A program made the position numbers and the translations under genes. The notes under the pieces were generated by a model. It made no database searches. It was not told the DNA's origin and saw nothing but the letters and a program-made list of their open reading frames with translations. Of a DNA stretch of 39,572 bases, positions 2,818-39,026 are shown one piece after another. Source of the DNA: Atractiella rhizophila (taxonomy: Eukaryota); NCBI GenBank assembly GCA_021432655.1, contig MU271501.1, forward strand, positions 12,687-52,258, written 5' to 3'. The first letter of the stretch is position 1, and every line of letters begins with the position of its first letter.

Positions 2818-3943
2818 ATGGGAAACGACGGGGGCTCCATTCCAAAGCGAGATGACTTAGTAAAGAACAAGGCAAAGAGTGAGAAAGTGGACTCGGAGAG
2901 CCACACTCTCGCTACTTGGTTTTATTGCCAGCTTTCAAAGGTTCGTCCCTGCCAAACCTCAGAGAAAGATGGATTGATAGGATTTGGGCGCAACTGGTAG
3001 GAGCTTTTAAGGGCTCCAGTCGTGTCCTGCAGACTAGGGAAGCTATACAACAAGGACGCCGTCATCTCATTCCTACTCCATCGCTCTTCCGCCTCCTCAA
3101 CAGCTGCTACATCCTCTTTCGGCGCTGACGGAGCACTCGTCGCCTCTCACCTCACCTCCCTGAAGGACGTAACGACGCTGAACCTCACTCCAAATCCCGC
3201 ATTCTCGCCAAAAGAGGGGAAGAACGGTAACGCTACCTTCGGAACCGTGGCGGACGGGAAAGCGCAATGGGTTTGCCCAATCAGTATGAAAGAGATGAAC
3301 GGGTTGAGTGGCAAGTTTGGGTATTTTGAAGAGTGCGGCTGCGTCCTTTCAGAGCAAGGCTTGAAGGAAGTACGGGCCTCTACTTCCAAATCCGCCACCA
3401 CAGCGTCGTCTTCTGAGGAACCATCTACTTCAACTTCGGCGACCCCCGAGCTTCTGTCTTGTCCGGTCTGCGCCACGGAGAGGCGGAAGGAAGACGAACA
3501 CTTCATCATCATTAATCCAAAAGGCACAGATCTTGACCTTGCAAAGGCTGCCGTGGAACTGAAGGTGAAAGAAGCGGAGGAAGAGCGAGCAGCGAAGAAG
3601 AGGTTGAAGGCTGAAGCTAAAGCGGCTAAGAAGAGGAAAGCAGGTGATTCTGATGCCCCAGCTTCAAAAGACGGAGTTCCAGATGAGCCATCGCTCAAGA
3701 AGAGTAAGAAGGAGAATGGGAGGGGAATGTCAGTGCTTCCGAAGAATGGGATTGAGAAGGAGGTTTTGGATGCGGTATCTAAAGCGAAGGAAAAAATGAG
3801 CCCAGCGGTCGCGGCCCTGTATCAGAAGGGAACAGGGCAGAAAGAAACTTGGTGAGTCACTTCTTTTTTGACACCTTGATAAAGAAAGCTGATGAGATAC
3901 GGAAAGGATGACGAGAGGTACTTGGACTCGTTATGCCGGTTGA
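2818..3943 (+). CDS. RTF2: Replication termination factor 2 (Rtf2 RING-like family)
   Basis: N-terminus MGNDGGSIPKRDDLVK; motifs LGKLYNKDAVI, CPISMKEMNG, CGCVLSE, CPVC; C-terminus WMTRGTWTRYAG*. Introns 2941-3000 and 3852-3906. Confidence 0.93.
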
Positions 3944-11590: not shown

Positions 11591-12537
11591 GCTTGCTTGA
11601 TCTTGATTAGATCAACACAAGTCACGTTTTTGCTGCTAGTCCCAAGACAAACGTCTTATTCTTCCAATCCAATTCCAGTTCTGCGTCTAAGTCCGACGAA
11701 CGAGTTGCGCGAAACGTATTCACGTTAGGGACAAAGCCCTCGCTTGTATATGATGGCTGCATTCGATTCAAACATGGCGGTTACCTCGGTGTTGTGCGTG
11801 CTTTGTTCCTCCAACAGGGATGTCCGCATCCAGCGGAGTGCTATTCCGCGTTGTTTGCTGCACTTCATATAGCTTCATTGCTGCATTCATCACCAAAATT
11901 GAGTCAAGGAAAAGGAATTTGTTGTGCGGTGCCGGAAGCTTGGCCCTCGTCAGACCGAGGACGGTGGAAGGCGAAAGGACATCCTTTCGCTTGCTCGTTA
12001 GGACTCATGTGAATTTCCTGTCTTTGCCATTTATGGCTCGCTCGATGATTGTTTCTCACACGAGTTTCGTTAGCTAGAATATCCATTGTTAGCTCAACTC
12101 ATTATCACTCACTGTACGGCGGCATAATGCACCTCCGCACTGCGTTCTTGTCAAGCGGGAGCCGCCCGGGTAGTAGATGATTACATATTGCAAGGTTATT
12201 TCCGTTGGAATAGCAACAACGGTCTTGAAGTGTGTAGTGCCCAAGAGTCAGGGCCGCAGTTGGAGAGCAGAGAAGGCTAGTTTTGCAAGTGCTGTCTTAG
12301 GGCTCAGGCCAGGGTACAATGATCCCGACATCGGTGTGGTGTCGTTGTAGACCGGCCTTCCCAGGAGCTGTGGTCTAAGCGATGAACCGTCGGACACGAG
12401 ACGCAATTCACACTTCAGAACTGGTTTGAACCTGTCCAACAGGCGACAGGGTCCTAATAAAAGTAGCTTTCCAGAGGATTCCCCCCTTGACTACTTTTCG
12501 ATCATTTCTGTGAATTATCGGAACTGCTACCTACCAA

Positions 12538-14610
12538 ATGATGTCAAATCTTCAGCTGCTGGCTGTTGTCGTGGGACTTGTAAGTCCTTGTTCACGCTAC
12601 TTACGAAATCCATGATAAATCGCGATTTCAAGGCGTCCCACTTGGTAGTTAAGAACCACGAACCTAGTGTACGCCAATTCGTGCAATATCTCGGAGCTGG
12701 CAGTCTCTCCTTGTGGACATATCTTGTTATTTCGTCCCACCCCTTCCCAGAGGACATCCAGCAATGGGCTCTCCACCTTCTGCACGTATCCTTCATATCT
12801 GTTCAGCTTTCTGGCATCTACCTCGCTTCCTTGACCGCGAGCATCGTGCTATACCGACTATTTTTTCACCGTTTACGCCATATTCCTGGACCTTTCATAT
12901 GCAAGGTTACTCAGCTATGGGCGCTCCGGAGCGTTCTCAAAGGTCAACATTTCATTGATGTCGAGGCTCTACACAAAAAGTACAACTCACCTTTTGTCCG
13001 AATCGGTATGCCCTTTCTCCATCCGAGAACTCTTTGGCGAGCTCAGTGATGTAGGTCCGAACGAAGTTTCTATCGTGCACGAGGATGCTGTCATAGACAT
13101 TTTGGGTGGAAAGTCAAATTTGCCCAAAAGTCGACAGTACAATACTGCCTCAATGAAAAGCGGTATGGTCCCATTTGTCAGCCGTTCCATGCCCTCGCTG
13201 AGCGTGCATAGGTTTCCGCCCCAGTTTGATCACAATCAAGGACCCCGATGAACACTCTGCGAGACGAAAGGAATGGGCAGGGGGATTTACGACTCATGCT
13301 CTAAAGGGATACAACGAGATTATCATCGCACGTGTTATGGAGCTAATGTCCCTGCTCCGATCCAGAGCGTCAGAACAGCCCATCGATTTAACGAAATGGA
13401 TCAAAGCCTGGTCATGCGATGTGATGGGAGACCTTTCTGGGTTTCATTTTCAGCAGATGCAAGATGGAGAGGATAAAGATGGATTCTGGAGAGCTATTGA
13501 AACAGGAGCTTTTATGGTGGCTAGTGGCAGGAAAGCTCCTCATTGGATCCACCTCTTGGCTGAGTTCGCACCATCTCGAGCGCTCGCTGGTGTCCTCTAC
13601 ACCGCTAGGAAACTTCGACAGCGATTCGGTAATTCATCTGTACAGTCCAAGGACATCTTTCACTTCATTGTAGGTTGATTTTCTCCCACACAAGGAACGA
13701 AAAATCACCATGTCATATTGTAGCTCGCAGATAAACAGAACCTCACCATGGACCAACTCACTCAGCAGTTTGCTGGCGAAGCATTCTTGCTCATGATCGC
13801 CGGTAGGCGCCTTATCCTATTGCAGCTACTGATCTATAACTGTCAAGTAGGTGCGGACACCACTTCCGGCGCGTTGACCAGCTTATTTTACTGCCTTCTC
13901 CTCCACCCTGGAAAATTTAAAGAGCTGCAGAAAGCCATCGACGAGTTATACGCAGAGAGTGGAGTTCCAGGAAAGGATCCTTTACCTCATGATGTTTTAG
14001 CATCCAGTCAAATCCTTGAGGCATACATAAATGAGGTTCTGCGCCTGTTTCCACCACTCAAATCTGGACAACCTCGACAGATTCCTGAAGGAGGAAGGAT
14101 TATTTGTGGTCACTATCTTCCGCCAGGGACGACAGTTTCAGTTCCAGCTTGGAGCATGCATCGCAACCGTCACTTCTTCAGCGACCCAACATCATTTCGG
14201 CCAGAGCGATGGTTGAACCCTGAAGCCGAGGTACGTTCCATTAGTCTGCCGCTCCCACTCATTTATGCATTTTGAAACAGGATAAGCATGTAACAAAAGC
14301 ATTCGTTCCCTTCAGCGTAAGCTTGCATTCTGTTTTCTTGATATCGCGGTAAACGGGCTTCCAGTATGGACCGATGAACTGCATTGGACTGTCTCTGGCG
14401 AGGCAAGGTACGCATCCCCTGAATTTGCCGGGCTTGAGCTCAAGAGGTACAGAAATGCGCATTCTGATCGCCACCATGGTACGAAATTTCGACATGGAGC
14501 CCATTCAAGGTGGCGGAATGGAAGATTTTGAAAGAGCACAGAAGGATTGGGTTGTCACCGTCCTTGGACCCCTAAAGGTCAAACTGATAAACCGGGCATT
14601 TGAAAGCTGA
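12538..14610 (+). CDS. Cytochrome P450 monooxygenase, copy 1 (resembles CYP5035/CYP67-like basidiomycete P450s; family tentative)
   Basis: RHIPGP hinge, VRIGPNEVSI, I-helix LMIAGADTTS, K-helix INEVLR, FRPERW, heme motif FVPFSYGPMNCIG after splicing. About nine short introns; stop at 14608-14610. Confidence 0.95.
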
Positions 14611-16047
14611 TCCCTCCTTTCCATTTCATGACTCTGTGTAAGTCCCTCTGTCTCGTTAATTATGACCCTGATCTCGTCAAAATGCAGTTGACTTCCAATT
14701 TAAATGTAAAACAGTCCCGTTCAGTTAGTCCATTAGTTCATACTGCACGTATTTGTCCAATGTTCGACAGCTTTATTAATCTCCTGCTTACCGTGTGATG
14801 CAAAGAAGGATCATGGTGACCGCAATTCTGACAATCCTCTTTCTGCTGCCTGCTTCCGTCAATCTCAAAGTAAACCCGTCGGTAAGAATACCCCAGCTGT
14901 GGAACCTCTCCTGGGCCGCTTTGCCTCCCGTGGATTAATACGCTTGTTCACAGATGTCTAGATTTCGGTGCTTCAACAAATCCTCTGTCTCATGTGTTGC
15001 CTGGCCAGCGATAATGGACTGCCACACTATTTAGGGTTTCAGTTCGCTGCCTCCCGAATCGTTCGCGCTTTTCTGACCAAGCACGACCAAGGTGAAATTA
15101 TCTCTCGTTTGTCTCCTTGCATTGCACAATTTTTTGGTGGAAGAAGGTGATTTTGTGCTCCCCGTAGTTACATGACTAAGATTCTTCAAGAAAGAAGCAA
15201 AGCGCAGGATCTCCCGTGCATGCGCCAGTGCTCAAGTCCCCACTGCTTTTATCACTTTCTCACATCGCTTCGCGTGACGTGATACATTCGGCAAGGGAAA
15301 CTATGTGTGATGAGTGATGTCTGTGGGCGGGGCGCTACCTCGGTATAGTGAGTCCACAGTCATGTATCCATGTTTGGCAGAGACCGGAATAACAACGATT
15401 GGGTGTCATTTGGATCTGCGTTTGGATTATTATTTTGATCCTGAAACCCGTGCCTTCAGCGTATGTTGCAAACACGTCCGAAAGGAGCATCACAAAAGCA
15501 CAATAAGTAATGGTTCCGCCTGGTTCCAGAAGCTCAGCGGGTTTGTGTGGGAAGGAAACAGTCGACAGCTTTTGACTTGTCTGCAGTCACAATTTGAGGT
15601 GACAGCGACTTATTCAGATGTTACATATTGGCCTTCTGATCGATATCTTCCCGCGCCGGTTTCGTTAACTGATAATCTAGCGGGACACTATTACGAGATC
15701 TACCATATGCCGAACCATAGCGCAGCTCTATATTGTTGTAGTATAGCAACTTGGGTTGCAGTACGTAGTGGCGAAATCCGTGGATGAGACGCTACTACGT
15801 TGTTGTTGTGTTCCTGCCTGGGCACAACGGCTAAAACTTCGGCATCTAGAGCTGTTAGTAGACCGGAATGCTGTGATATTGAATCGAACTGATGAAAAGT
15901 GGGACGCGGGACACAGTTCAAGCTTCAAAGCAACTGTTTAGTCAGGAGGTCTGATATAAAGTAGCTTTGTAGAGGATCCCTGCTGTAAAAGGTCACCTCC
16001 CCTCCTGCTCCCCTTCCATTGAAAATTATCGGAATTGCGACCAAATA

Positions 16048-18113
16048 ATGCCAAGCTCTCAGTTGTTGGCTGTTGTCGCGGGACTTGTAAGCCCATGATC
16101 TTCCTACTAAGGAAAAACCTTGATGATTGCGATTTGAAGACGTCTCACTTGGTATTTAAGAACCGCGAGCCCACCGTACGCCGATTCCTGCAATACATCG
16201 CAGCCGGCAGTCTCTCCTTGTGGGCATATCTTGTCATTTCGTCCCACCCATTCCCGGAAGACCTCCAGCAATGGGCTCTCCACCTTCTGCACGTATCCTT
16301 CCTATCTGGTCAGCTTTCTGGCATCTATCTCGCTTCCTTGACCGCAAGCATCGTGCTATACCGACTATTCTTTCACCCCTTACGCCATATTCCTGGACCT
16401 TTCGTATGCAAGGTCACTCAGCTATGGGCGCTCCGGAGCGTTCTCAAAGGTCGACATTTCATTGATGTCGAGGCTCTACATAAAAAGTACAATTCACCTT
16501 TTATCCGAATCGGTATGGCCTTTCTCCATCCCAAAACTCTTTGGCGAGCTTTGAGATGTAGGTCCCAACGAAGTTTCTATCGTGCACGAGGATGCTGTGG
16601 TAGATATTTTAGGTGGAAAATCAAATTTGCCCAAGAGTCGACAATACGATTCCCCCTCGATGAAAAGCGGTATGTTTTTTCTCAATTGCATTGTGGCTTC
16701 GCTGAGCATATTCAGGCTTCCGACCCAGTTTGATCACAATTAAGGATCCCGATGAACATTCTGCGAGACGGAAGGAATGGGCAGGGGGATTCACGACTCA
16801 TGCTCTAAAAGGATACAATGAGATTATCGTCGCCCGTGTCATGGAGCTTATGTCCTTGCTCAGGGAGAAGGCTTCGGAAGCGAACGTCGATCTAACAAAG
16901 TGGATCAAGGCTTGGTCTTGCGACGTCATGGGAGACCTTTCTGGATTTCATTTCCAGCAGATGCAAGATGGGGAGGATAAGGACGGATTCTGGACAGCCA
17001 TCGAGACAGGAGCTTTTATCGCCGCTAGCAGCAGGAAAGCTCCTCATTGGTTCCACCTCTTGGGCGAGATAGCACCAGCAAAGGCGCTGGCCGGTGTCTT
17101 CTACACTGCTGCAAAACTTCGACAACGATTCACTAATTCCACCGTTCAGTCTAAGGACATCTTTCATTTTATTGTGGGCTGATTTCGTCTAGCACAAGGA
17201 GGTGCATTGATATCTCGACTTGTAGCTTGCAGACAAGCAGAACCTCACCATGGAACAACTCATTCAGCAGTTTGCTGGTGAAGCATTCTTGCTCATGATC
17301 GCTGGTAGGTGCTCTCATTTTATTGCGAATTCTTGTCTATAATTGCTGATCAGGTGCGGACACCACTTCCGGAGCGCTTACAAGCTTGTTTTACTGCCTC
17401 CTCCTCCTCCCCAACAGATTCAAAGAGTTGCAGAAAGCAGTGGACGAAATGTATACAGAAAGCGGCGTTCCAGGAAACGAACCGCTACCTCATGATATTT
17501 TAGCTTCTAGTCAAATCCTTGAGGCATACATCAACGAGGTTCTGCGCCTGTTTCCACCACTCAAATCTGGGCAACCTCGGCAGATTCCTGAAGGAGGAAG
17601 GATTATTTGTGATCGCTATCTTCCCGCTGGGACGACAGTTTCGGTTCCAGCGTGGAGTATGCATCGCAATCCTCACTTCTTCAGCGACCCAACCTCATTT
17701 CGACCCGAGCGATGGTTGAACCCTGAAACAGAGGTACGCTTCCTTGACCACTGCCCCATGGCCCATTTACGCATTGGTAAACAGGAGAGACACGTGGCGA
17801 AGGCGTTCGTTCCTTTCAGTGTAAGCTTCAATTCTATTCTCCTGATGTCCCTAATAAACGCGTTCTAGTATGGACCAATGAACTGTATCGGACTTTCTCT
17901 GGCGAGACAAGGTATGCATCTTCTCAACTGACCAGTGTAAGCTGACAAGGGACAGAAATGCGCATTCTAATCGCCACCATGGTGAGGAACTTTGATATGG
18001 AGCCTATTCGAGGCGGCGGAGTGGAGGATTTTGAAGGGGCACAAAAGGACTGGATTGTCACCGTCTTAGGGTCGCTGAAAGTGAAGTTAACAAATCGCTC
18101 ATTTGAAACCTAA
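16048..18113 (+). CDS. Cytochrome P450 monooxygenase, copy 2 (tandem paralog of copy 1)
   Basis: Same exon/intron layout and motifs (HIPGP, AGADTTS, INEVLR, PERW, FSYGPMNCIG). Starts MPSSQLLAVVAGL, ends KLTNRSFET*; no frameshift found by eye. Confidence 0.95.
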
Positions 18114-18461
18114 GGGTGCCTTCCCCATTTCACCCGCTTGTTACTTTCAGAATGCCACCATGATCTCGAGAGAATAGCTGTCAGGTTCGATGAGATCCGC
18201 TTTCATTTCATCTGAAGTCTGTTTCAACACACGAACTGTTCTTACTTTACGCTGCACATATTTTGCCCAATATGCCACAGTAGTTGTCTTATAAACCACT
18301 ACCATGTCGGTCCCAAAGACGTTCAGCGCAAGTTCCTTCCTCTGCGCGGTGATTATTGAACCTCTTCCAACATTTTCCATTAGGTATTCTCGAAATCTAC
18401 ATACCCATAAGCATGCTCGAGCTATGAAAACTACTTTTCCATGGCTTCGGCATGCTTTAAT

Positions 18462-20381
18462 TGAACTTTTGGTGTCAACATGTTCTTCTCACGTCTTGTC
18501 CAACCAGCTAGAACTGTTCGGTGAGAAGGATCTTACAGAATAAGACGTGATCACGATGCCGGATTCTAGGAGTTCGTCTCGAAGAGAGCTGGACAAATCG
18601 TGAACGGGACTGTGATCACATAGCCTTTAACCTCCTTGCTAGTCATTCAATGAATAGTTCACTGGGAACGAGATGGATAATTGCTACAACAGATCAATTT
18701 GGGACTGTTACAACAGATCAATTGGGATTGAACACTTCACCACCTTTGTTTGATACACTCGATATCTCGTTTCAAATTCAGCCCGTCCAGACAGCGGGAC
18801 CAGGTTGGACATAAGAAGTCGGGATGGGCCACCAGATGTTTATGGTCAACTGGCGATAAGGCGTCAACACATTTCTGACGAGAAGTGGAAAGGATGTGAG
18901 CACATACCCCTGGGTCCTGTTTCATTCAATTCCATTGACAACTTCAATGGGGTTAATTCGAATAATGAGTGAGACACGTACAGTTGCGCTATACGCTCCG
19001 GGAATGGCCACCAAAGGTCCTGAAAAGGATTCAGGATGGATTGTCGCTGTAAGGATGTGAAATGTGACGCACCAGGACTTCCACTTCCCCCATTATTGAC
19101 TTGGATTTGTGCGCAGCCTTGTATAAGAAGTATCCCTTATCTGCATTTAAAAGGTGATCGAAAAGAGCTTACCGATATAGAACTAAAACATCACTAGTGA
19201 ACGGCCTATCTGTACGTAGGAAGAAAGACAAACTTGAGGAGCACCCGCAGAATGCAAAGCGATGTGTTCTGCTCGCAGAAGGTACCTGAGCATTAATATT
19301 GTCAGGTCTGCATGGGTTCAAGTTGTGGAAAAACGAGGCGTACTGCCCAGTAGGAGTAGCAGCAGGAATCTTGAAATTCAAAGCCTGGAGACCTGCAACG
19401 GCAGACTGAGATGAAACTTTGGCGTCAATAAGTTCCTCTCACGGTCGAGTCAACATGTCTTGTCTAACCAGCTAAAATGGTTCAGTGAGAAGGATATTAC
19501 AGAGTAAGACGTGATTGCTATCTACGTCGGATTTTTAAGAGTTCGTCTCGAAGAGAGCTGGACAAATCGTGAAAGGGGATTGTGATCATAGAGCCTTTAA
19601 CCTCCTTGCTAGTCATTCAATGAAGAGTTCACTTGGAACGAGATGGATAATTGCTACAACAGATCAATTTGGGATAGTTACAACAGATCAATTGGGATAG
19701 TACACTTTACCACCTTTGTTTGATACACTCGATACCTTGTTTCGAATTCAACCGGTCCAGACAGCGGGACCAGGTTGGACATAAGAAGTCGGGATGGGCC
19801 ACCAGATGTTTATGGTCAACTGGCGATAAGGTGTCAACACAGTTAAGACGAGAGGTGGAAAGGATGTGAGCACATACCCCCGGGTCCTGTTTCATTCAAT
19901 TCCATTGACAACTTCAATGGGGTTAATTCGAATAATGAGTGAGACACGGACAGTTGTGCTATACGCTCCGGGAATGGCCACCAAAGGTCCTGAAAAGGAT
20001 TCAGGATGGATTGTCGCTGTAAGTATGTGAAATGTGACACACCAGGACTTCCACTTCCGCCATTATTGACTTGGATTTGAGCGCAGCCTTGTATAAGAAG
20101 TATCCCTTAACTACATTTGAAAGGTGATCCCAAAGGGCTTACCAATATAGAACTAAAACATCATTAGTGAACGGCTTACATGTACGTAGGAAGAAAGACA
20201 AACTTGAGGAGCACCAGCAGAATGCAAAGCGATGTGTTCTGCTCGCAGAAGGTACCTGAGCATTAATATTGTCAGGTCTGCATGGGTTCGAGTTGTGGGA
20301 AATCGAGGCGTACTGCCCAGTAGGAGTAGCAGCAGGAATCTTGAAATTCAGAGCCTGGAGACCTGCAATGGAAGATTGAGA
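18462..20381. repeat. Head-to-tail tandem duplication, about 950 + 970 bp (units 18462-19411 and 19412-20381), covering the AA9 3' half and its 3' flank
   Basis: Near-identical sequence at offset 970 (e.g. 18737 vs 19707). At the junction (~19411/19412), intron sequence of one unit abuts 3'-flank sequence of the other. Confidence 0.95.
18778..19392 (-). other. Duplicated, intact 3' half (7 exons) of the AA9 LPMO with no 5' exons: partial gene or alternative 3' cassette
   Basis: Splices to LQALNFKIPAATPTGQYLLRAEHIALHSAGAPQFYIGCAQIQVNNGGSGSPGPLVAIPGAYSATDPGLTINIWWPIPTSYVQPGPAVWTG*. All splice sites are intact, including the upstream TTGCAG acceptor ending at 19393. Confidence 0.88.
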
Positions 20382-21222
20382 ATCCGTGCTTGGAAACTAT
20401 TGTGGGTAGAAACTGACCTTGGGCAGGAAATTGAATGTTGTTCACACCATTCGGGTCGGCGACGGCAGAAATTTGGTAAATCTTCATAATTTTTCATCAC
20501 TTTCTCTCATTCTCAGAGGGTAGTTGGCTGACCTTGAACCACACCTGCTCGAGGCGTTAATAACAGAGTTCCTGGAGTGAGAAAGACTGACGGTTCCACT
20601 ACCGTCCCAAGTCGTAAAGTTGGCTGACCTTGAACCACACCTGCTCGAGGCGTTAATAACAGAGTTCCTGGAGTGAGAAAGACTGACGGTTCCACTACCG
20701 TCCCAAGTCGTAACGCTGCTTCCGCTTGGAACCTTCAGAATAAGGTCAATAAAATTTCATGCCAAGAAACGACCTTGCTTTTGCCATATAGACATTAACT
20801 ACACCTGGGTGGTACCTGGATAGCCATTTTAGTTCAAACAAAAGCCATAGAGGGACAAGGCCACTGACAGGTTGTCATCCGTCCAGAACGTCACATTAGA
20901 ACCGGCAGTGATAGGATATGGCGTGGCGCTGCTCGCGGTACCTCCGGCTCCGGTGTAGCACCTAACACAAGTCATGAACAACCGGCAGGCATAGGGACGA
21001 GGCAAGCCTGAGGTTGGGATCTGCGACGTTCTCGACCTATGACAAACAGGGCTTAGAAGATCGGATGGAGGAACAAGAACGATGTACGGGTGCCCTGGAG
21101 TAGTGGTTGTCTGTCATCCTTACCACTTGCCAATCAGCCGTATCGCTGTTCAAGCGTGGCCATGTGTAATGTGCAATCGCTGCGAGCGGAAGACAAGCAG
21201 AGACAAGAGTCGAGAGCATCAT
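19748..21222 (-). CDS. AA9 (formerly GH61) lytic polysaccharide monooxygenase, secreted, about 229 aa, 14 exons, no CBM
   Basis: Signal peptide MMLSTLVSACLPLAAIA, then His1 in HYTWPRL..WQVVRMTDNHYS; NLRCY; second His in LYHPGVVNVYMAKVP; WDGSGTVWFKI; GQYLLRAEHIALHSAGAPQFYIGCAQI; PGPAVWTG*. Exons 21222-21088, 21036-21008, 20961-20869, 20815-20779, 20732-20688, 20640-20629, 20481-20418, then seven more to 19748. Confidence 0.95.
20522..20713. repeat. Perfect 2 x 96-bp tandem repeat inside the AA9 gene, duplicating the VWFK micro-exon
   Basis: 20522-20617 is identical to 20618-20713; micro-exon GTGTGGTTCAAG at 20640-20629 and 20544-20533. Confidence 0.96.
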
Positions 21223-22111
21223 CTTGCCAATCGAATTTCGAGGAGCAGAAAGCGTTCTGACCTTGATTAGCCAGCAAATCAACGCTGTCTTTTATAGTCG
21301 ATAGGCCTTTATGGCTTGAAAGCTCTGGGCTCGTCTCATTCAACGTGCAATCTCTTTAGATCGAGCCGTCTCGCCATTTCCCCTCGTTCACTTGCTGAAT
21401 ATTCGTTTCCCACGTCCACCCGTCCTAGGAGATGTTGGTAACATCTTCGGCTAAATGTGAACCACCGCTGCTTTAGCTCGCCTCCCATGAGCTCGCACTC
21501 CATTCCTCTCTTCAAGAAGATGAAAATGCTGGTGGAGACATGTGGGGTGTTATTGACAGCTCCTAACTCGCGAAACACGAGGTGAGAGGCAGGAATTTGC
21601 CGATGAAGGACATCTCATCGATGAAGGGATATCCCCAGACGGTCTGGTGATCGTTGCTTCCTGCCGTCATTCACCACCATCTCCTTCGTGGACAGCATGC
21701 CAAGACCAAACATGAAGAGGAGGAAGGCAACGACGGACCGTGGGCGTCGCACCTTGGTCCGTTCTGCCGATAGCTCAACCATGGCTCGTAAATGGGACAC
21801 GGTGCTGATTATGGGTGGATATTGCAAGAAAATAGGGTAAGCATTTTTGATCTACGTTATGCCTTAGCATAAACCTGACATCCATAGGCAGCTCAAGAAA
21901 AGTCTCGTTCTGTGATTTGGATTAGGAGTAGATTAGATAAAGCCTGACCACATTCCACGGTCAAGTTTCCGTCATCATTCGAATACGCATGCGTGGACAT
22001 TACGCTAAAGACTTTCATGTCTTGCGTGAGGCACTCTACAGTGAAACACATTCGCGAGGCTGAGGCTCAACATTCGACAATCGACCATGCTCAACGGTAG
22101 CTTGATGGTGA

Positions 22112-31826: not shown

Positions 31827-32725
31827 TATACAAGTCCAAATCGTTTGGTTTGCTTAATATGGTGTCAATGTTGAATGTTTGGGCATATTTGTGCGTTTAG
31901 CTTATCAGTCGCCCAAGAAATTAGGTTCGGCCCTATTATCCAGTTGGAGACCCTCAGGAACATCCATCGTTTCAGTTCAGCTTTCACTACAGCATTCCAT
32001 TTTCAGTCTTTTGGCCTTCACAACTCTGGACGAGTGCTTAGGTAAGGCTTTGTGGTGCTTTTATCTGAAAATTAGCAATGTCTTGTTCTTCCGTTACAAT
32101 CAGTCATTCCATATTCCATACTTTATTTTATAGTTCTGTCATTTGAGACAGCTTTCGAGGAGGACAGCAAGAAGATTTGATATTGTGAAGGTTGTTGGTC
32201 GTTCCTCGTGAACAGTATATTTAGTGTTGTGGGAGGAAGAGGATGAGGACCCTGACTCCGCCAACCTCGAAGGATTGCTCCTCCTTCGTTCAAGTTTCAG
32301 CGCACGGTCCTTATCCGGACGATGCCTAGTTTGTTGTCTGTTCTTGTTACCATTGCTACTCTCCCGCTCTTAAAAGCTAGCAGGAGTACGACGGATTACG
32401 GTGAAACCGGAACTGTTTGTCTTGCACCCATCAGGAGCATCCCATAACCATAGATTGTTTGAGAACAAAAGGTGGGACGACCCGTTGGGGTTCTCTTTGG
32501 CCTACCACTTCTGTATTGCTTTTGGCCTTGCATCATTTTACAGTTACAACTTGAGCTGAGCCGCAGCTGATAAGGGATATTCAGATTCAGACCGAAGGTG
32601 TTCTTGATCCACTTCCTCCACAGAAACGTCCATGTAGACGCCGCTCCTTCCACTTCGGAATCCGGCCGATTGCTCACCTCTCAGCCTACTGTCTCTTCGC
32701 CCATCGATATCTACGTTTCCGAAGG

Positions 32726-34087
32726 ATGGCTCAATCCCCCACACCCACTACCACGTCAATGTCAATGGAGTCCCCCTTCTACACCCTCTGTTCCACCCGT
32801 GCCCAAGTCCTCATTTGTGCTTCCGAGGCACGTCGTTATGGTACCATCGCATTCGATTGCGAAGGCTCCAACCTCGGCAGCGCAGGAGGTTCTCTCTCTC
32901 TCATGTCAGTCTGTATCGTCCGCACCCGTTCCGTCTTCCTCCTCGACTGTCTCCTCCTCTCCCGATCCGACCTCGATCCCTTCTTCGACGTCCTCAAGGA
33001 TCCTTCGGTGCGCAAAATCGTATGGGATGGCCGGTTAGACCAGAGCGAATTATTTCATGGATGGAGAACGAAGATGGTTAATTGTCTTGATATGCAGCTG
33101 GTCGATGTGATGAGTCGCAAATTGAGGGCTCAGACTTGGATTGATCAGGCTGAGAGATTGGTGAGGAGGAAGTATGCGACGTGGGAGTTGGTCAAGATGC
33201 ATCCCGCCATTTACGGCAAGATAAACGTCTTGTTGGGACTTGAACAGGCGGCGGTGGAACACGGCATACCTGTAAACGGTCAGTAACTACTCCTGTCCTT
33301 CCCTTTCTCGTCGAGAGAATGAACTCATGTATATTGAAACGAAAAATATAGATCGACCTACACAGATCGACCATCAGGCTTGGATGAGGCGGCCTTTCGA
33401 ATCGCATGAACTCTTAGACTATGCGGTTTCCGTACGTCCTTGAATGACACTCTTCAGATCCTGATCAAATTCACTCGATAATAGGACGTTATCCTCATTG
33501 CCTCTCTCTACGACCATTTCACCACTCAAGGTTACTACGATGCAACGTCGCTGCGTCTCCGTACCGCAACCTACCTCAACTTTCACCTAATCGGCCGCAG
33601 GGATCCCAACGACAAGTTCCGAGGCGGCCACCCGCTTCTTCCACTCGAAATCCTCCATTCGTCCCCTATGTCGGAGCAACATATCCATTGCTCTCGCTGC
33701 CAGCGTCTGCTCGGTCGATTGGCGAGCTTTTCCCGGTCGGAACAGGAAGGAAAGGAGGTATGCTACGTCTGCGCTGTCGTGCAGTGGCGTGTGCTACATA
33801 CCGAACTGGAGAAGGTGGGGAGGGAGATTGGGCGGATGATGGGACGGTATTCTGAGCCTGGAGTCCGAGTTAGTGGGGAGAAGATCTTGAAGGAGATGAA
33901 GATTTTGGAGACTCATCCCATGTCTCCCTTCACACTTTCTTCCAAGCGTAACCTCCTCAAACAGGTTCATGGACAGCAGGATGTGGTGACGGCCCGCGCA
34001 AGGCTCTATGTCACATCTCAGAAGTTGGAGGTTGGGATGCTGCAACTGCCTCTCATTTGCCTCTACGATACTCCGAGAGGCAAGTGA
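32726..34087 (+). CDS. DnaQ-like 3'-5' exonuclease (DEDDy; EXD1/Egalitarian-like) with C-terminal Cys cluster
   Basis: Exo I IAFDCEG, Exo II KIVWDGRLD, LDMQL, Exo III WMRRP...LLDYAVS|DV; then HPLLPLEIL and CSRC...CYVC. Two introns near 33279-33351 and 33432-33484. Confidence 0.85.
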
Positions 34088-34162: not shown

Positions 34163-34237
34163 GCTTCTGTGCTCTGCTCATTAATTACAGCTTTGATGCT
34201 TCTGTGCTCTGCTCATTAATTACAGCTTTGATGCTTC
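34163..34237. repeat. Perfect 35-bp tandem repeat (about 2.1 copies) downstream of the exonuclease stop
   Basis: gcttctgtgctctgctcattaattacagctttgat at 34163 and 34198. Confidence 0.95.
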
Positions 34238-34532: not shown

Positions 34533-37027
34533 CTATACACTAACTCCGTAGCCTCCATCCTTCCTTGTTCCCAAGCGTATCCTCATCGCTGACATCTTTG
34601 TCATCTCCTCCTCGCTTCCTTTTGACCCAAGAATATCATATATCAACGTCCCACCTTCAGAGAGCCTTTCTGCCCCAGTCTCCAGCAATTGGCCGTCATC
34701 AAGGTCATTTTTCGTTACCGATATTCTAGCAGACCGCCAAACATCCCAACAGATCCAAGTAGCAAAAGCCGTGAAAGCCACAACCAGTCCGAAAAATACG
34801 CCTAATACGGACCAAGGAATATAAGTCGCTTGAACGAGCTTGATATCCCTCTCCTCGATAGAAGACGCGCTTGTATGAACCCCAGCAGATGTAGAGAGGA
34901 AGACATTTGCGACAGCTCGAGAGTAGGCAGAGGTGAAGGAAACGGAACGATTGCTTGCTGGACCAAGGGGAGACGCTTGGCCGTCTGTATACACTTTTGA
35001 GGATAAACGTGCTGAAGTGTTTCTGTCAATTAAGGACACCTGAAAAATCAAAATCACCGTACCTGCTGTGAAACCACCGCTAATTGCCCAGACCTCCGGT
35101 GAACCCTCTCCTGCTCTCTGGGCATCCAGGACCTCGATAAAGCCTCTATTGTTTTGGTATGTCACGGGCGCGAGGACTTCAACCTGGCACCACAGCAATC
35201 CAAAGAGTCGTGGGCCACGCGTGTGCACCATGCCGCCTAACAGTTGTGGTGTGGTGTTGTCGGTGTCGTCTTGAAGGTCTGCATTGAAAATCATGGCTAA
35301 TGCGACCGGAAAAGGATTAGAGCTTTGTCCTCTCACTATTGAGTCCACAGCGGAAGGATCAAACTCTGAAATCACAGATTACGTTGGGCATTAAGAAGGA
35401 GATCTGAGGGACTCACGAGTTATATTCCATCCAGCGTTAGGTCCAAAGGCAGTATTTGTTGCACTGATGCCTTGCGTTAGTCCAGGTATTCCTGGACAAT
35501 CGTACAACACGCTCCCAGTTTCCGCCGAATCGTCTGGTTGCTCGACATGGATGTTACAGTATGGAGTCAAATTCTCACATGTTGTTCTGACCCCAGTTGT
35601 GGTTGCTTTGTAGGAAAGAATTGCCTGGGTATCGCTGGAAAGATAAGGAAGGAGAAGTGCGGTCGTAGTTGAAGGCGTCGCATCAGCACCCAAGGACGAC
35701 TGGGGTGCCGTCTCGGATATCAGACGAACGGTGTTCGTCGTAGAGAGGTTATTCGCAGTCAAGATAGCTTCGTTCGAACCCCGCAGGATATCGACAGCGC
35801 CTTGAGCATCTGCACATGAGTTTCCAAGATAGGTCAATGAGCATGCAAGGGATTGTTCTCCATCGCAATCTATATATTGCGGGCTTTGTTGACAGAAACT
35901 GTCGATGGAACGACTAAGTTGGAGATTGTTCGAAGGGGAGCGAGACGCTTCAACAGGCAGGATCCTCGGTAGCGTCACTGCATGTAACCAAATCCCCTCA
36001 ACAACAGAGATCGCATAAGCGAGAACTAGTAGGGGGAGGATGGCACGAAGGGCGATGTAAAGAAGACCGCGATGGGGGTTTTGTGAGGAAGATCGGAAAG
36101 ATGTCGAGAGTGCCTCCAATACAGATTTCAAACCAACTCCTGCACATATCCCCACTAATCGAGTGAACTGGACACCTTTAGTTTTAAGATCGGTCAGGAG
36201 AGAAAATGAAGAATACTGACGTGTGAAGGGGTAGGCAGGGAATTAGAAAGGTCCGTGGGCTTGTCGGTTTTCTTTGCTTTCTCACTTCGCTTCTCTGTGT
36301 TGGAACTAGCCGTAGCCCAAATTGCAGCAACTTTAAATGCCACCAACGTGGTGAGTAGTGGTAAGATTAAGAATACAGCCCTGGAGACGATGCTGGATAT
36401 CAATAATAATCGACCAGCTGGTGCCGTGGAAGAGATTCCATGATGTGAGGAAGATCGGAAAGATGTCGAGAGTGCCGTCAATACAGATTTCAACCCAACT
36501 CCTGAACATATCCCCACTAATCGAGTGAACTGGACACCTTTAGTTTTACAATCTGGAGAGAAAATGAAGAATACTGACGTGTGAAGGGGTAGGCAGGGAA
36601 TTAGAAAGGTCCGTGGACTTGTCGGTTTTCTTTCCTTTCTCACTTCGCTTCTCTGTGTTGGAACTAGCGGTAGCCCAAATTGCAGCAATTTTAAATGCCA
36701 CCAAAGTGGTGAGTAGTGGTAAGATTAAGAATACAGCCCTGGAGACGATGCTGGATATCAATAATAATCGACCAGCTGGTGCCGTGGAAGAGATTCCATG
36801 GTTAGACAGCAACAGACGAGTTGAGAACAGATATCCAGCTGTTGAGGAAAAGCTAAGCTACGTTTCATAGAACGTATCTCTTGCTCACCAAATGCGCCAA
36901 CAACGCCGACAGTTCCCACCCACGTCGCTAAAAGCACAAGTACTACTTTGTGAGTTGGTATTCTCTCTCTTGTTACTGACCCTGATTCAACCGAGGTTTC
37001 TTTTTTGGCGACGCTATCTTTGTCCAT
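34533..37027 (-). CDS. Multi-pass membrane protein with Cys-containing extracellular region and C-terminal TM (uncharacterised)
   Basis: Consecutive long frames 37027-36890, 36812-36220, 36166-35417 and 35361-34533 joined by GT-AG introns (boundaries approximate). Several TM segments, an LPTPSH|FTRLV motif, and a C-terminal TM WSVLGVFFGLVVAFTAFATWICW. Confidence 0.75.
36082..36800. repeat. About 360-bp intragenic tandem duplication (36082-36443 and 36444-36800)
   Basis: Near-identical blocks at offset 362/358; the 4-nt length difference lies inside the duplicated intron (53 vs 49 nt). Confidence 0.95.
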
Positions 37028-37530: not shown

Positions 37531-39026
37531 TTGGGATGGATTAGTGTTCGCTATGCTAATCTCCTTTATACCACTACACAAGGAGACAAAGGAAGAGCCC
37601 GTATCTGCAAGTCTGTTGTCGGTGCTCTCGCAGTGGCGAACACTGCCATCAAAGAATCACCTCTCACCAGAAGGACGAATATTTATCTTTCCAAGACGTT
37701 GGCTGTAATGGTGTCGGAGCAGCGACCGCAGTATCAAGCATTCGTCGATATTCCAGAAGAAGACTCTATTGAGGAGATCCTTTTATTTCTCTTTTTGAAG
37801 GAAAGAGGTCTACAAACGGCCTTCAGATTTGACGCAGACAATTGGACAAAAAGTCTGCATTGAATTTGGATGAGTTGTCCCTAACAAACAAGATTGATCT
37901 GATGTGTGACAACAAAGAGGAACGACTGTTCGAAACCGTACACGGTTTTCAGAGATCTATAACAAGATCCAAGTTGAGGATTTATTCATCTAGCTGCCGA
38001 TCGACCTTCTTTTCTGTTTGACGAAGATATTGGATGCCTATAGGGGAATAACGGTCAAATTTCGAAGAGCCGGATTTTCGCGTCACGGTTTAATGTCGTT
38101 GGCATCTCCAAAATTTGTGAACTTTGAGGAATTACAGCATTCATATCATATGAATGTCATTCCCACGTTGAGACCTGGGGACAGATCATTGTGCCGTGGA
38201 TCAGAGAGCTAATCCTATTCAGGTTCAGTGTGGGATGGATCAGAGAGCTAATCCTATTCAGGTTCAGTGTGGGGACTCCTGGCACTGAGACTTTAATGAA
38301 TACAGGGCTTTCTATCCCAAAGAAACATTTTGTCTGCAGTTCATGTGTATCCAGCCGCCACTATGTTCGGAAGATCGTAGACAAAAAATCTTCGTTCGGT
38401 TGGAACTCTGTGGTGCATCCAATTTCTCACAATCTTCTCTTTGGTTAAAGCGGACGACATCTTTGTCACCATTGGATTACTGACGACCTTTCCCTGCTCT
38501 TGAAACTGTCATTGTTGAGCTCAGAGTACCTGTACCTTTCAACTGGGATCTTTTGTCGATACCGCACTCATGTCTTCAGCTTTTACCTCGAGCGAAACTT
38601 AGATTTCTGTAGAGACGGCGTACGGAACAACTCTCAGAGGAATATCGCATTTACATCGCTATACGGACATCTTACCATGACGAAGTGGTTTGGAGCGCGA
38701 CCTTGATGACTACTCAAGATGAGTTCGCAGATTTGCAAGCCCCGATTGAAGTAGGGGTAGTGCGTGTGCCAACAAAACCTAATGTTTAGCTGGTGTTGGC
38801 TGTCGCATACGATTTCCGTTTCACTTTCAAAGGGGGGATGAAGATGAAATGGAATGACTCCAGTTCTGTTATGATAGTTTCTATTCCTGCATACAAAAAA
38901 GGTGGCGTCCGATTTTCTCAATCTGAAGTAAAAATGGCCTTCTATAAACAAGGTCGCACTGCAATAGAAAAACTGACACGAAACCAGTTTCACCGATTCC
39001 CTGCCACCTACCCAGAACATTTGTGA
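37531..39026 (+). other. Possible fragmented or degenerate multi-exon hypothetical gene
   Basis: Exon-like frames 37581-37853 (after a GCTAAT...CAAG acceptor) and ~38793-39026. I could not assemble a clean model or recognise a family. Confidence 0.25.
38197..38273. repeat. 39-bp tandem repeat, 2 copies
   Basis: tggatcagagagctaatcctattcaggttcagtgtggg at 38197 and 38236. Confidence 0.95.

Follow-up and report, generated by a model that had tools for sequence, protein, structure and literature searches.

Two alleles placed in tandem by the assembler probably account for the duplicated 3′ half of an AA9 LPMO gene in Atractiella rhizophila

Why should a gene for an AA9 lytic polysaccharide monooxygenase (LPMO) carry its 3′ half twice? 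The window analysed here, 39,572 nucleotides of contig MU271501.1 from the Atractiella rhizophila assembly GCA_021432655.1, contains such a gene on the minus strand, with the 3′ half and about 320 nt of 3′ flank present twice, head-to-tail. The original prediction had described this duplication, had set the breakpoint at 19411/19412, and had proposed that the donor at 20417 could reach an acceptor at 19393 in the orphan copy through an in-phase intron of 1025 nt. Global alignment of the two copies, which we used to set the unit borders, gave 19412-20381 and 18462-19411 and the same breakpoint, and a splice model of the hypothetical intron 20417-19393 returned the donor, acceptor, length and phase as predicted. 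A repeat search within the window recovered a core of 300 nt at 93% identity with a spacing of 970 nt, far above chance. The features of the duplication are as follows.

19412..20381, minus strand: proximal unit, 970 nt, made up of a 19-nt intron tail, seven Thr-allele exons and a 3′ flank of 336 nt (alignment, exon table)
18462..19411, minus strand: distal unit, 950 nt, made up of a retained 19 nt of the upstream intron with its TTGCAG acceptor, seven Ala-allele exons and a 3′ flank of 316 nt (alignment)
19411/19412 (region 19381..19442), no strand: unit junction (alignment of units)
20362-20314 and 19392-19344, minus strand: 3′ exon 1 of 7, proximal and distal
20255-20204 and 19285-19234, minus strand: 3′ exon 2 of 7, proximal and distal
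20152-20143 and 19182-19173, minus strand: 3′ exon 3 of 7, proximal and distal
20087-20043 and 19117-19073, minus strand: 3′ exon 4 of 7, proximal and distal
19989-19952 and 19019-18982, minus strand: 3′ exon 5 of 7, proximal and distal
19886-19878 and 18916-18908, minus strand: 3′ exon 6 of 7, proximal and distal
19819-19748 and 18849-18778, minus strand: 3′ exon 7 of 7, proximal and distal

The seven 3′ exons total 275 nt in each copy, and the distal reading frame is intact. The window contains 0 N, and the junction at 19411/19412 is plain sequence without a gap. The breakpoints of the units, one in the upstream intron and the other about 330 nt past the stop codon, share no homology with each other in the global alignment.

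Over the 45 aa of exon 1 the gene product has 100% identity to the N-terminal part of P0001, a protein that NCBI names Atractiella rhizophila lytic polysaccharide monooxygenase. P0001 matches the Pfam AA9 family (PF03443) with E = 1.5e-33 and 116.9 bits against a cut-off of 27.8, and its full-length matches to solved AA9 chains range from E = 3e-42 (8b7p) to 1e-37. The remainder of the 5′ half was placed as follows.

20418..21222, minus strand: 5′ half of the AA9 LPMO gene, with the ATG at 21222 (exon 1 identity to P0001, spliced-contig joints in X3 and X5, in-frame model)
21222-21088, 21036-21008, 20961-20869, 20815-20779, 20732-20688, 20640-20629 (or its duplicate 20544-20533) and 20481-20418, minus strand: 5′ exons
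21007-20962 and 20778-20733, minus strand: GC-AG introns (spliced-contig joints)
20522..20713, no strand: perfect tandem duplication, 96 nt x 2, covering part of an exon, an intron, the 12-nt exon and 11 nt of the next intron

The intron before exon 20481-20418 ends in ..gaag, which fixes the exon start at 20481. Joints in spliced contigs from public reads (below) confirm 11 of the 13 introns of the gene model, including both GC-AG introns and the micro-exons of 9, 10 and 12 nt, and a twelfth intron is backed by an 8-letter loose end in X3. The resulting RNA-supported model has 14 exons and encodes 229 aa with a single catalytic domain and no CBM. Residue 1 of mature 8b7p pairs with His18 of the precursor, which follows a 17-residue hydrophobic leader, so that signal-peptide cleavage would fall before His18. 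In the same alignment the H of ..YHPG.. falls opposite that of ..GHPG.. in 8b7p, HIALH is present, and the model reads Q-F-Y where 8b7p has QFY. We take the N-terminal His and the HPG His to be the histidine brace of the AA9 family and the Tyr of Q-x-Y to be its axial Tyr. These features and the Pfam match are shared with solved AA9 LPMOs (formerly GH61; PDB 8b7p, 3eii, 4b5q), and by comparison with them the product is predicted to be an ordinary AA9 LPMO, with nothing unusual about it as an enzyme; what the gene adds is its 13 introns, two of them GC-AG, and its micro-exons.

Between the two units, 9 of the 275 exon positions are different; 8 of these changes are synonymous and one exchanges Thr (ACA, proximal, 19957) for Ala (GCA, distal, 18987). 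This recount of the aligned copies agrees with the number and kind of differences originally predicted, as do the intact splice sites and the diverged introns and flanks: all 12 internal introns, 6 per copy, begin with GT and end with AG, there are no indels within them, internal introns differ at 21 of 340 positions (6.2%), and in the 3′ flank 36 of the 316 aligned positions (11.4%) are different and a further 20 columns are gaps. Purifying selection during the divergence, which the prediction had read from the excess of synonymous changes, was upheld by a formal dN/dS calculation. With 68.3 synonymous and 204.7 non-synonymous sites (Nei-Gojobori, 275 exon nt), dS was 0.127, dN 0.0049 and omega 0.039; the probability of at least 8 synonymous changes out of 9 under neutrality is 1.1e-4, and that of at most 1 non-synonymous change out of 9, had the distal copy been neutral since its birth, is 0.003. 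On these substitution counts both sequences appear to have diverged while coding for a working protein. A search with the exon 1 protein against longer proteins gave 2 candidates and 1 match, P0001 alone, and so provided no relatives with which to polarise the nine differences.

To ask whether both units lie on one chromosome copy, we turned to public reads. A run search returned two DNA-like runs from one sample, X1 and X2 (organism A), in which the share of sampled words was 0.71 and 0.69, respectively, plus ten small-share runs; none was listed as RNA. Four of the 12 listed runs (X1, X3, X5 and X9) were aligned to 18300-21300 at 85% likeness. X3, X5 and X9 were judged to be spliced from exon-exon joints in their contigs, the kind of run being otherwise guessed. 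All four data sets are Logan contigs, which drop variants, and holes or missing junctions in them prove nothing; contig depth does not equal copy number, and sums of depths serve as a consistency check only. X1, the best DNA run, may come from a culture or isolate other than the source of the assembly.

X1 proved heterozygous at the locus. Several stretches were covered by two contigs, one window-like and one 10-18% different, as listed here.

18302-18420: diverged X1 contig, 13 differences and 1 gap
20351-20415: diverged X1 contig, 12 differences and 1 deletion
21052-21127 and 21249-21262: diverged X1 contigs
20351, 20369, 20372 and 20376: unit-separating sites, distal-type in the second X1 contig at 20351-20415

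Contig 2 of X1 (369 nt, depth 153) carries the diverged version of 18302-18420, followed by 41 unplaced letters and then by 19412-19568 with 1 difference. Since 41 letters is the length of 18421-18461, the proximal-type end sits in this contig where the distal end sits in the window, as in a single-unit haplotype, and contig 2 represents a form of the DNA without the distal unit. At the other end of the unit, the second X1 contig at 20351-20415 (depth 160.4 of 261.9) is distal-type at 4 of the 4 unit-separating sites and runs on into a diverged but full upstream intron, in which 8 further differences and a deletion of 1 nt occur as far as 20415; it also has one private change. This layout places a distal-type unit, too, directly behind a 5′ half. 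Within the units, X1 matched the window exactly at 18300-18599, 19024-19240 and 19211-19380 (distal) and at 19994-20210 (proximal). The homologous contigs 3 (distal 19024-19240, depth 132) and 5 (proximal 19994-20210, depth 89) each end 30 nt into contig 4 (19211-19380, depth 250), like the arms of one bubble. The sum of 132 and 89 roughly matches 250, and the flank arms have depths of 118 and 153; contig depth not being copy number, these values fit a two-haplotype sample with two units overall. Bin depths were reproduced exactly from these contigs alone, the bins 19310-19410 and 19411-19511 being fully accounted for by contigs 4 and 2. X1 had no contig on 19381-19411, 18603-18703 or 20219-20319, holes that in Logan contigs prove nothing. 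Taken together, the X1 contigs show that this sample has a locus with a single unit, of which the proximal and distal sequences are two alleles.

The size of the divergence agrees. In the unique flanks of X1 the alleles differ at 13 of 119 (10.9%) and 12 of 65 (18%) positions, and the divergence between the units of the window (6.2% in introns, 11.4% in the flank, dS 0.127) is similar in size. Several letters found only in the proximal unit are absent from X1, namely the Thr codon at 19957, the letter at 20221 and three more within the first intron of the unit, and at those sites X1 carries distal-type sequence at a depth of about 250. X3, X5 and X9 lack the Thr codon too, all 3 being of the Ala type. 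On account of these missing letters, the proximal haplotype of the window would be a third variant, identical to neither X1 haplotype. An attempt to phase the X1 haplotypes by depth was abandoned, as arm depths ran from 87 to 189 in no consistent ratio.

Each spliced contig of X3, X5 and X9 has one 3′ half. X3 and X9 combine a proximal-type last exon and 3′ UTR (156 and 189 nt, zero differences) with an Ala-type fifth exon, and X3 in addition has a distal-type exon 2 upstream of proximal-type exons 3 and 4, an order of letters that a proximal-distal tandem spliced linearly could not produce. In X5, exons 2-4 are of the proximal type, and exons 5-7 and the 3′ UTR after them are of the distal type. 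These contigs demonstrate expression and splicing of distal-type sequence, which is how an allele would behave. Mosaics of the two types are expected from other haplotypes, from de Bruijn switching between two expressed alleles or from two paralogues, and are not decisive alone. No 20418-to-19392 joint was among those listed for X3, X5 and X9, whose pieces stop at that boundary or cross it by 16-19 unplaced letters.

We consider it probable that the tandem is not a real feature of the organism and that two alleles of one ordinary gene were abutted by the assembler, a heterotype false duplication. The sequenced material would have been heterozygous, with haplotypes about 6-11% apart in non-coding DNA at this locus. 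The 5′ half and the proximal 3′ half (19412-20381) would derive from one haplotype, the distal 3′ half (18462-19411) and the downstream flank, leftwards, from the other, and the assembler would have abutted the two at 19411/19412. Both units would be intact and differ almost only by synonymous changes as working alleles of the same gene, and the signal of purifying selection would likewise come from alleles of one single-copy locus. A false duplication would account for the intact splice sites, the omega of 0.04, a unit divergence close to the allelic divergence and all four X1 junction contigs, and from these we infer that the junction in the window is the work of the assembler, not of the organism. 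Among the options in the original prediction, the assembly of two haplotypes in tandem fits best and is the one we think likely, given single-unit alleles in X1 that each have their own flank.

Passages of Ko et al. (2022, PMC9516828) present heterotype false duplications as a common assembly error in regions of diverged haplotypes, with falsely duplicated exons within a single scaffold among them, and give as hallmarks a gap between the copies, half read depth, haplotype-specific k-mers, and discordant read pairs or a junction that no long read crosses; such duplications are also addressed by purge_dups (PMC7203741). The locus resembles the cases in the former passages (PMC9516828) in having diverged haplotype versions side by side on one scaffold, in a region more diverged than usual, and in that false exon gains mislead annotation. 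Haplotype-specific k-mers of the kind described there have a counterpart in the proximal and distal contigs of X1, which are alternative arms running into shared contigs, each type a single unit with its own version of the flank. In contrast to the gap named in the same source (PMC9516828), there is 0 N at 19411/19412. Depth, too, is a different quantity, being that of mapped reads in the published description and here the per-contig k-mer depth of X1 Logan contigs (132, 89 and, shared, 250).

The tandem might instead be real, recent and inert, an illegitimate exchange between the two diverged alleles having fused an intron on one homologue with the 3′ flank on its partner and left a distal unit that is not used. 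The contiguous sequence of the window speaks for this, as does the match of both units to X1 haplotypes, which would equally explain divergence that is nearly all synonymous, and X1 may be a different isolate, given its share of 0.71 and the absence of proximal-only letters. An exchange of this illegitimate kind between alleles would be required because the breakpoints lack homology, which rules out unequal homologous crossover; X1 has single-unit forms only, and the joining of diverged contig ends by an assembler gives the same picture and, from the passages in PMC9516828, is much commoner. We therefore regard an inert tandem as unlikely. In such a tandem the distal unit would lie behind the proximal polyadenylation region. 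An old tandem duplication, with selection or gene conversion preserving both units, or a paralogue whose 5′ half was lost, would suit copies that are 6-11% diverged with every splice site intact, next door to tandem P450 paralogues. A never-duplicated haplotype should then behave as an outgroup, with states of the two units mixed site by site, whereas X1 matches block-wise, at 156 of 157 positions on the proximal side and 4 of 4 diagnostic sites on the distal side, each on a diverged flank. The depths, a weak indicator, suggest two units and not three in a two-haplotype sample, and an old duplication seems to us very improbable.

Equally hard to credit is the proposal that the donor at 20417 splices to either 20363 or 19393, yielding Thr and Ala isoforms with different 3′ UTRs. 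The locus does resemble mutually exclusive exons and alternative 3′-terminal cassettes in having two in-phase, intact 3′ blocks behind one donor, and the TTGCAG acceptor, the open distal frame, the X5 contig with distal-type last three exons and 3′ UTR and the omega of 0.039 are all what such a cassette would show. In known exon cassettes each chromosome copy has both blocks, and the peptides they encode are different. The two blocks of this locus act like alleles in X1, where DNA forms with a single unit of either type were found, and the proteins differ by one conservative residue at a non-conserved position, which is Pro in 8b7p, the best solved relative. In X1 each unit type has surroundings of its own, a full intron for the distal type and a downstream flank for the proximal type; distal-type transcripts are explained as well by an expressed allele, and the joint from 20418 to 19392 is not listed in any of 3 spliced runs, although no listed piece crosses that boundary informatively. 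With single-unit haplotypes in X1 and no such joint listed, the option of one 5′ half serving two 3′ halves, which the original prediction had put forward, found no support. Were the tandem real and the donor at 20417 able to use either seven-exon block, the outcome would be nearly the same protein with different 3′ UTRs, a young cassette derived from allelic exchange, for which we see very little chance. A real tandem would be a rare and datable gain of an alternative 3′ end from allelic material.

If false duplication is the right reading, the locus is of small biological interest and its lessons are practical. In unphased assemblies of heterozygous fungi, an intact duplicate with synonymous-only divergence has the look of two alleles in tandem and should not be taken to indicate selection on the duplicate. 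The public model also appears to have been led astray by the false tandem. P0001 (220 aa) omits the proximal unit, and its exon from 19438 crosses the junction into the distal copy; it also lacks the 64-nt exon 20481-20418, mis-splices both GC-AG introns, replaces the Q-F-Y micro-exon, so that this motif is missing, and drops the D-P-G micro-exon. Counts of CAZymes and alignments that use P0001 inherit its error, and the RNA-supported version with 14 exons and 229 aa is the model to use. When the 89-aa open frame across the junction (19438-19172) was used as a protein query, it gave 1 candidate and 0 matches; neither the junction peptide nor the intron-type alternative turned up in an independent ORF, which is uninformative. 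JGI metagenome contigs yielded 119 pattern matches to P0001, 0 of them confirmed by tblastn, and hence no independent environmental copy of the locus. The passages on Atractiella rhizophila in PMC13347111 concern phylogenetic placement and contain nothing on ploidy or assembly method.

Tandem P450 paralogues adjoin the LPMO gene, further short tandem duplications are present in the window, and a 358-nt repeat lies at 36082-36800. Real tandem duplication could be frequent in this genome, a consideration that weighs against an artefact. As for the perfect 96-nt duplication in the 5′ half, whose copies meet at 20617/20618, a contig of X1 omits one of its copies (20522 to 20619), and spliced contigs have the 12-nt exon once.

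Several letters set the proximal unit (19412-20381) apart from its head-to-tail copy, the distal unit (18462-19411), and these were compared with public runs. The Thr codon at 19957 was seen in none of the four (X1, a heterozygous DNA run, and X3, X5 and X9, which yield spliced LPMO contigs). The remaining proximal-only letters, at 20221 and within 20256-20313, the unit's first intron, were not seen in X1; the proximal-type letter at 20221 is present in X5. At 19957, 20221 and 20256-20313, X1 carries distal-type sequence at approximately the summed depth. Since X1 is without the proximal-only letters, the proximal haplotype of the window is not identical to either X1 haplotype.

The sole public protein of the LPMO gene, P0001 (18778-21222), is mis-modelled. 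It takes the distal copy by way of an exon that crosses the 19411/19412 junction, and it is without the Q-F-Y micro-exon, the D-P-G micro-exon and one 64-nt exon. Micro-exons of 9, 10 and 12 nt occur in the gene, as do two GC-AG introns with the donors GCTTGC and GCAAGG, both borne out by joints in X3 and X5 spliced contigs:

21007-20962, minus strand, GC-AG intron
20778-20733, minus strand, GC-AG intron

The gene also contains a perfect tandem duplication, which is listed here with the other tandem repeats of the window:

20522-20713, 96 nt x 2, perfect, within the LPMO gene
34163-34237, 35 nt x 2.1, perfect
36082-36800, 358 nt x 2, 95-98% identity, in a minus-strand stretch rich in open frames
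38197-38273, 39 nt x 2, perfect

Each 96-nt duplicate takes in a 12-nt exon together with the 47-nt intron before it, a piece of the exon before that, and 11 nt of the intron that follows. A single copy is found in an X1 DNA contig, and the 12-nt exon is present once in the X3 and X5 spliced contigs. In the LPMO exon model, retention of both 12-nt exons would add 4 residues and keep the frame. The duplication may be another assembly artefact, or a recent harmless event. Given the perfect duplications at 34163-34237 and 38197-38273, exact short duplications are recurrent in the contig. The 358-nt repeat, in which several differences between the copies alter residues, could be a further intragenic duplication or a further haplotype artefact; the open-frame-rich stretch that holds it looks like a membrane protein.

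Other genes in the window include a tandem P450 pair:

3001-3852, plus strand, Rtf2 RING-finger domain gene (E = 3e-44)
12533-14608, plus strand, cytochrome P450 gene (Pfam p450, E = 1e-26)
16040-18111, plus strand, cytochrome P450 gene (Pfam p450, E = 1e-26)
32555-33283, plus strand, 3'-5' exonuclease domain gene, a weak match (E = 2e-5)

The two P450 genes, spaced at 3.5 kb with repeated blocks of 78-91% identity, look like genuine paralogues. The end of the pair adjoins the 3' flank of the LPMO gene.
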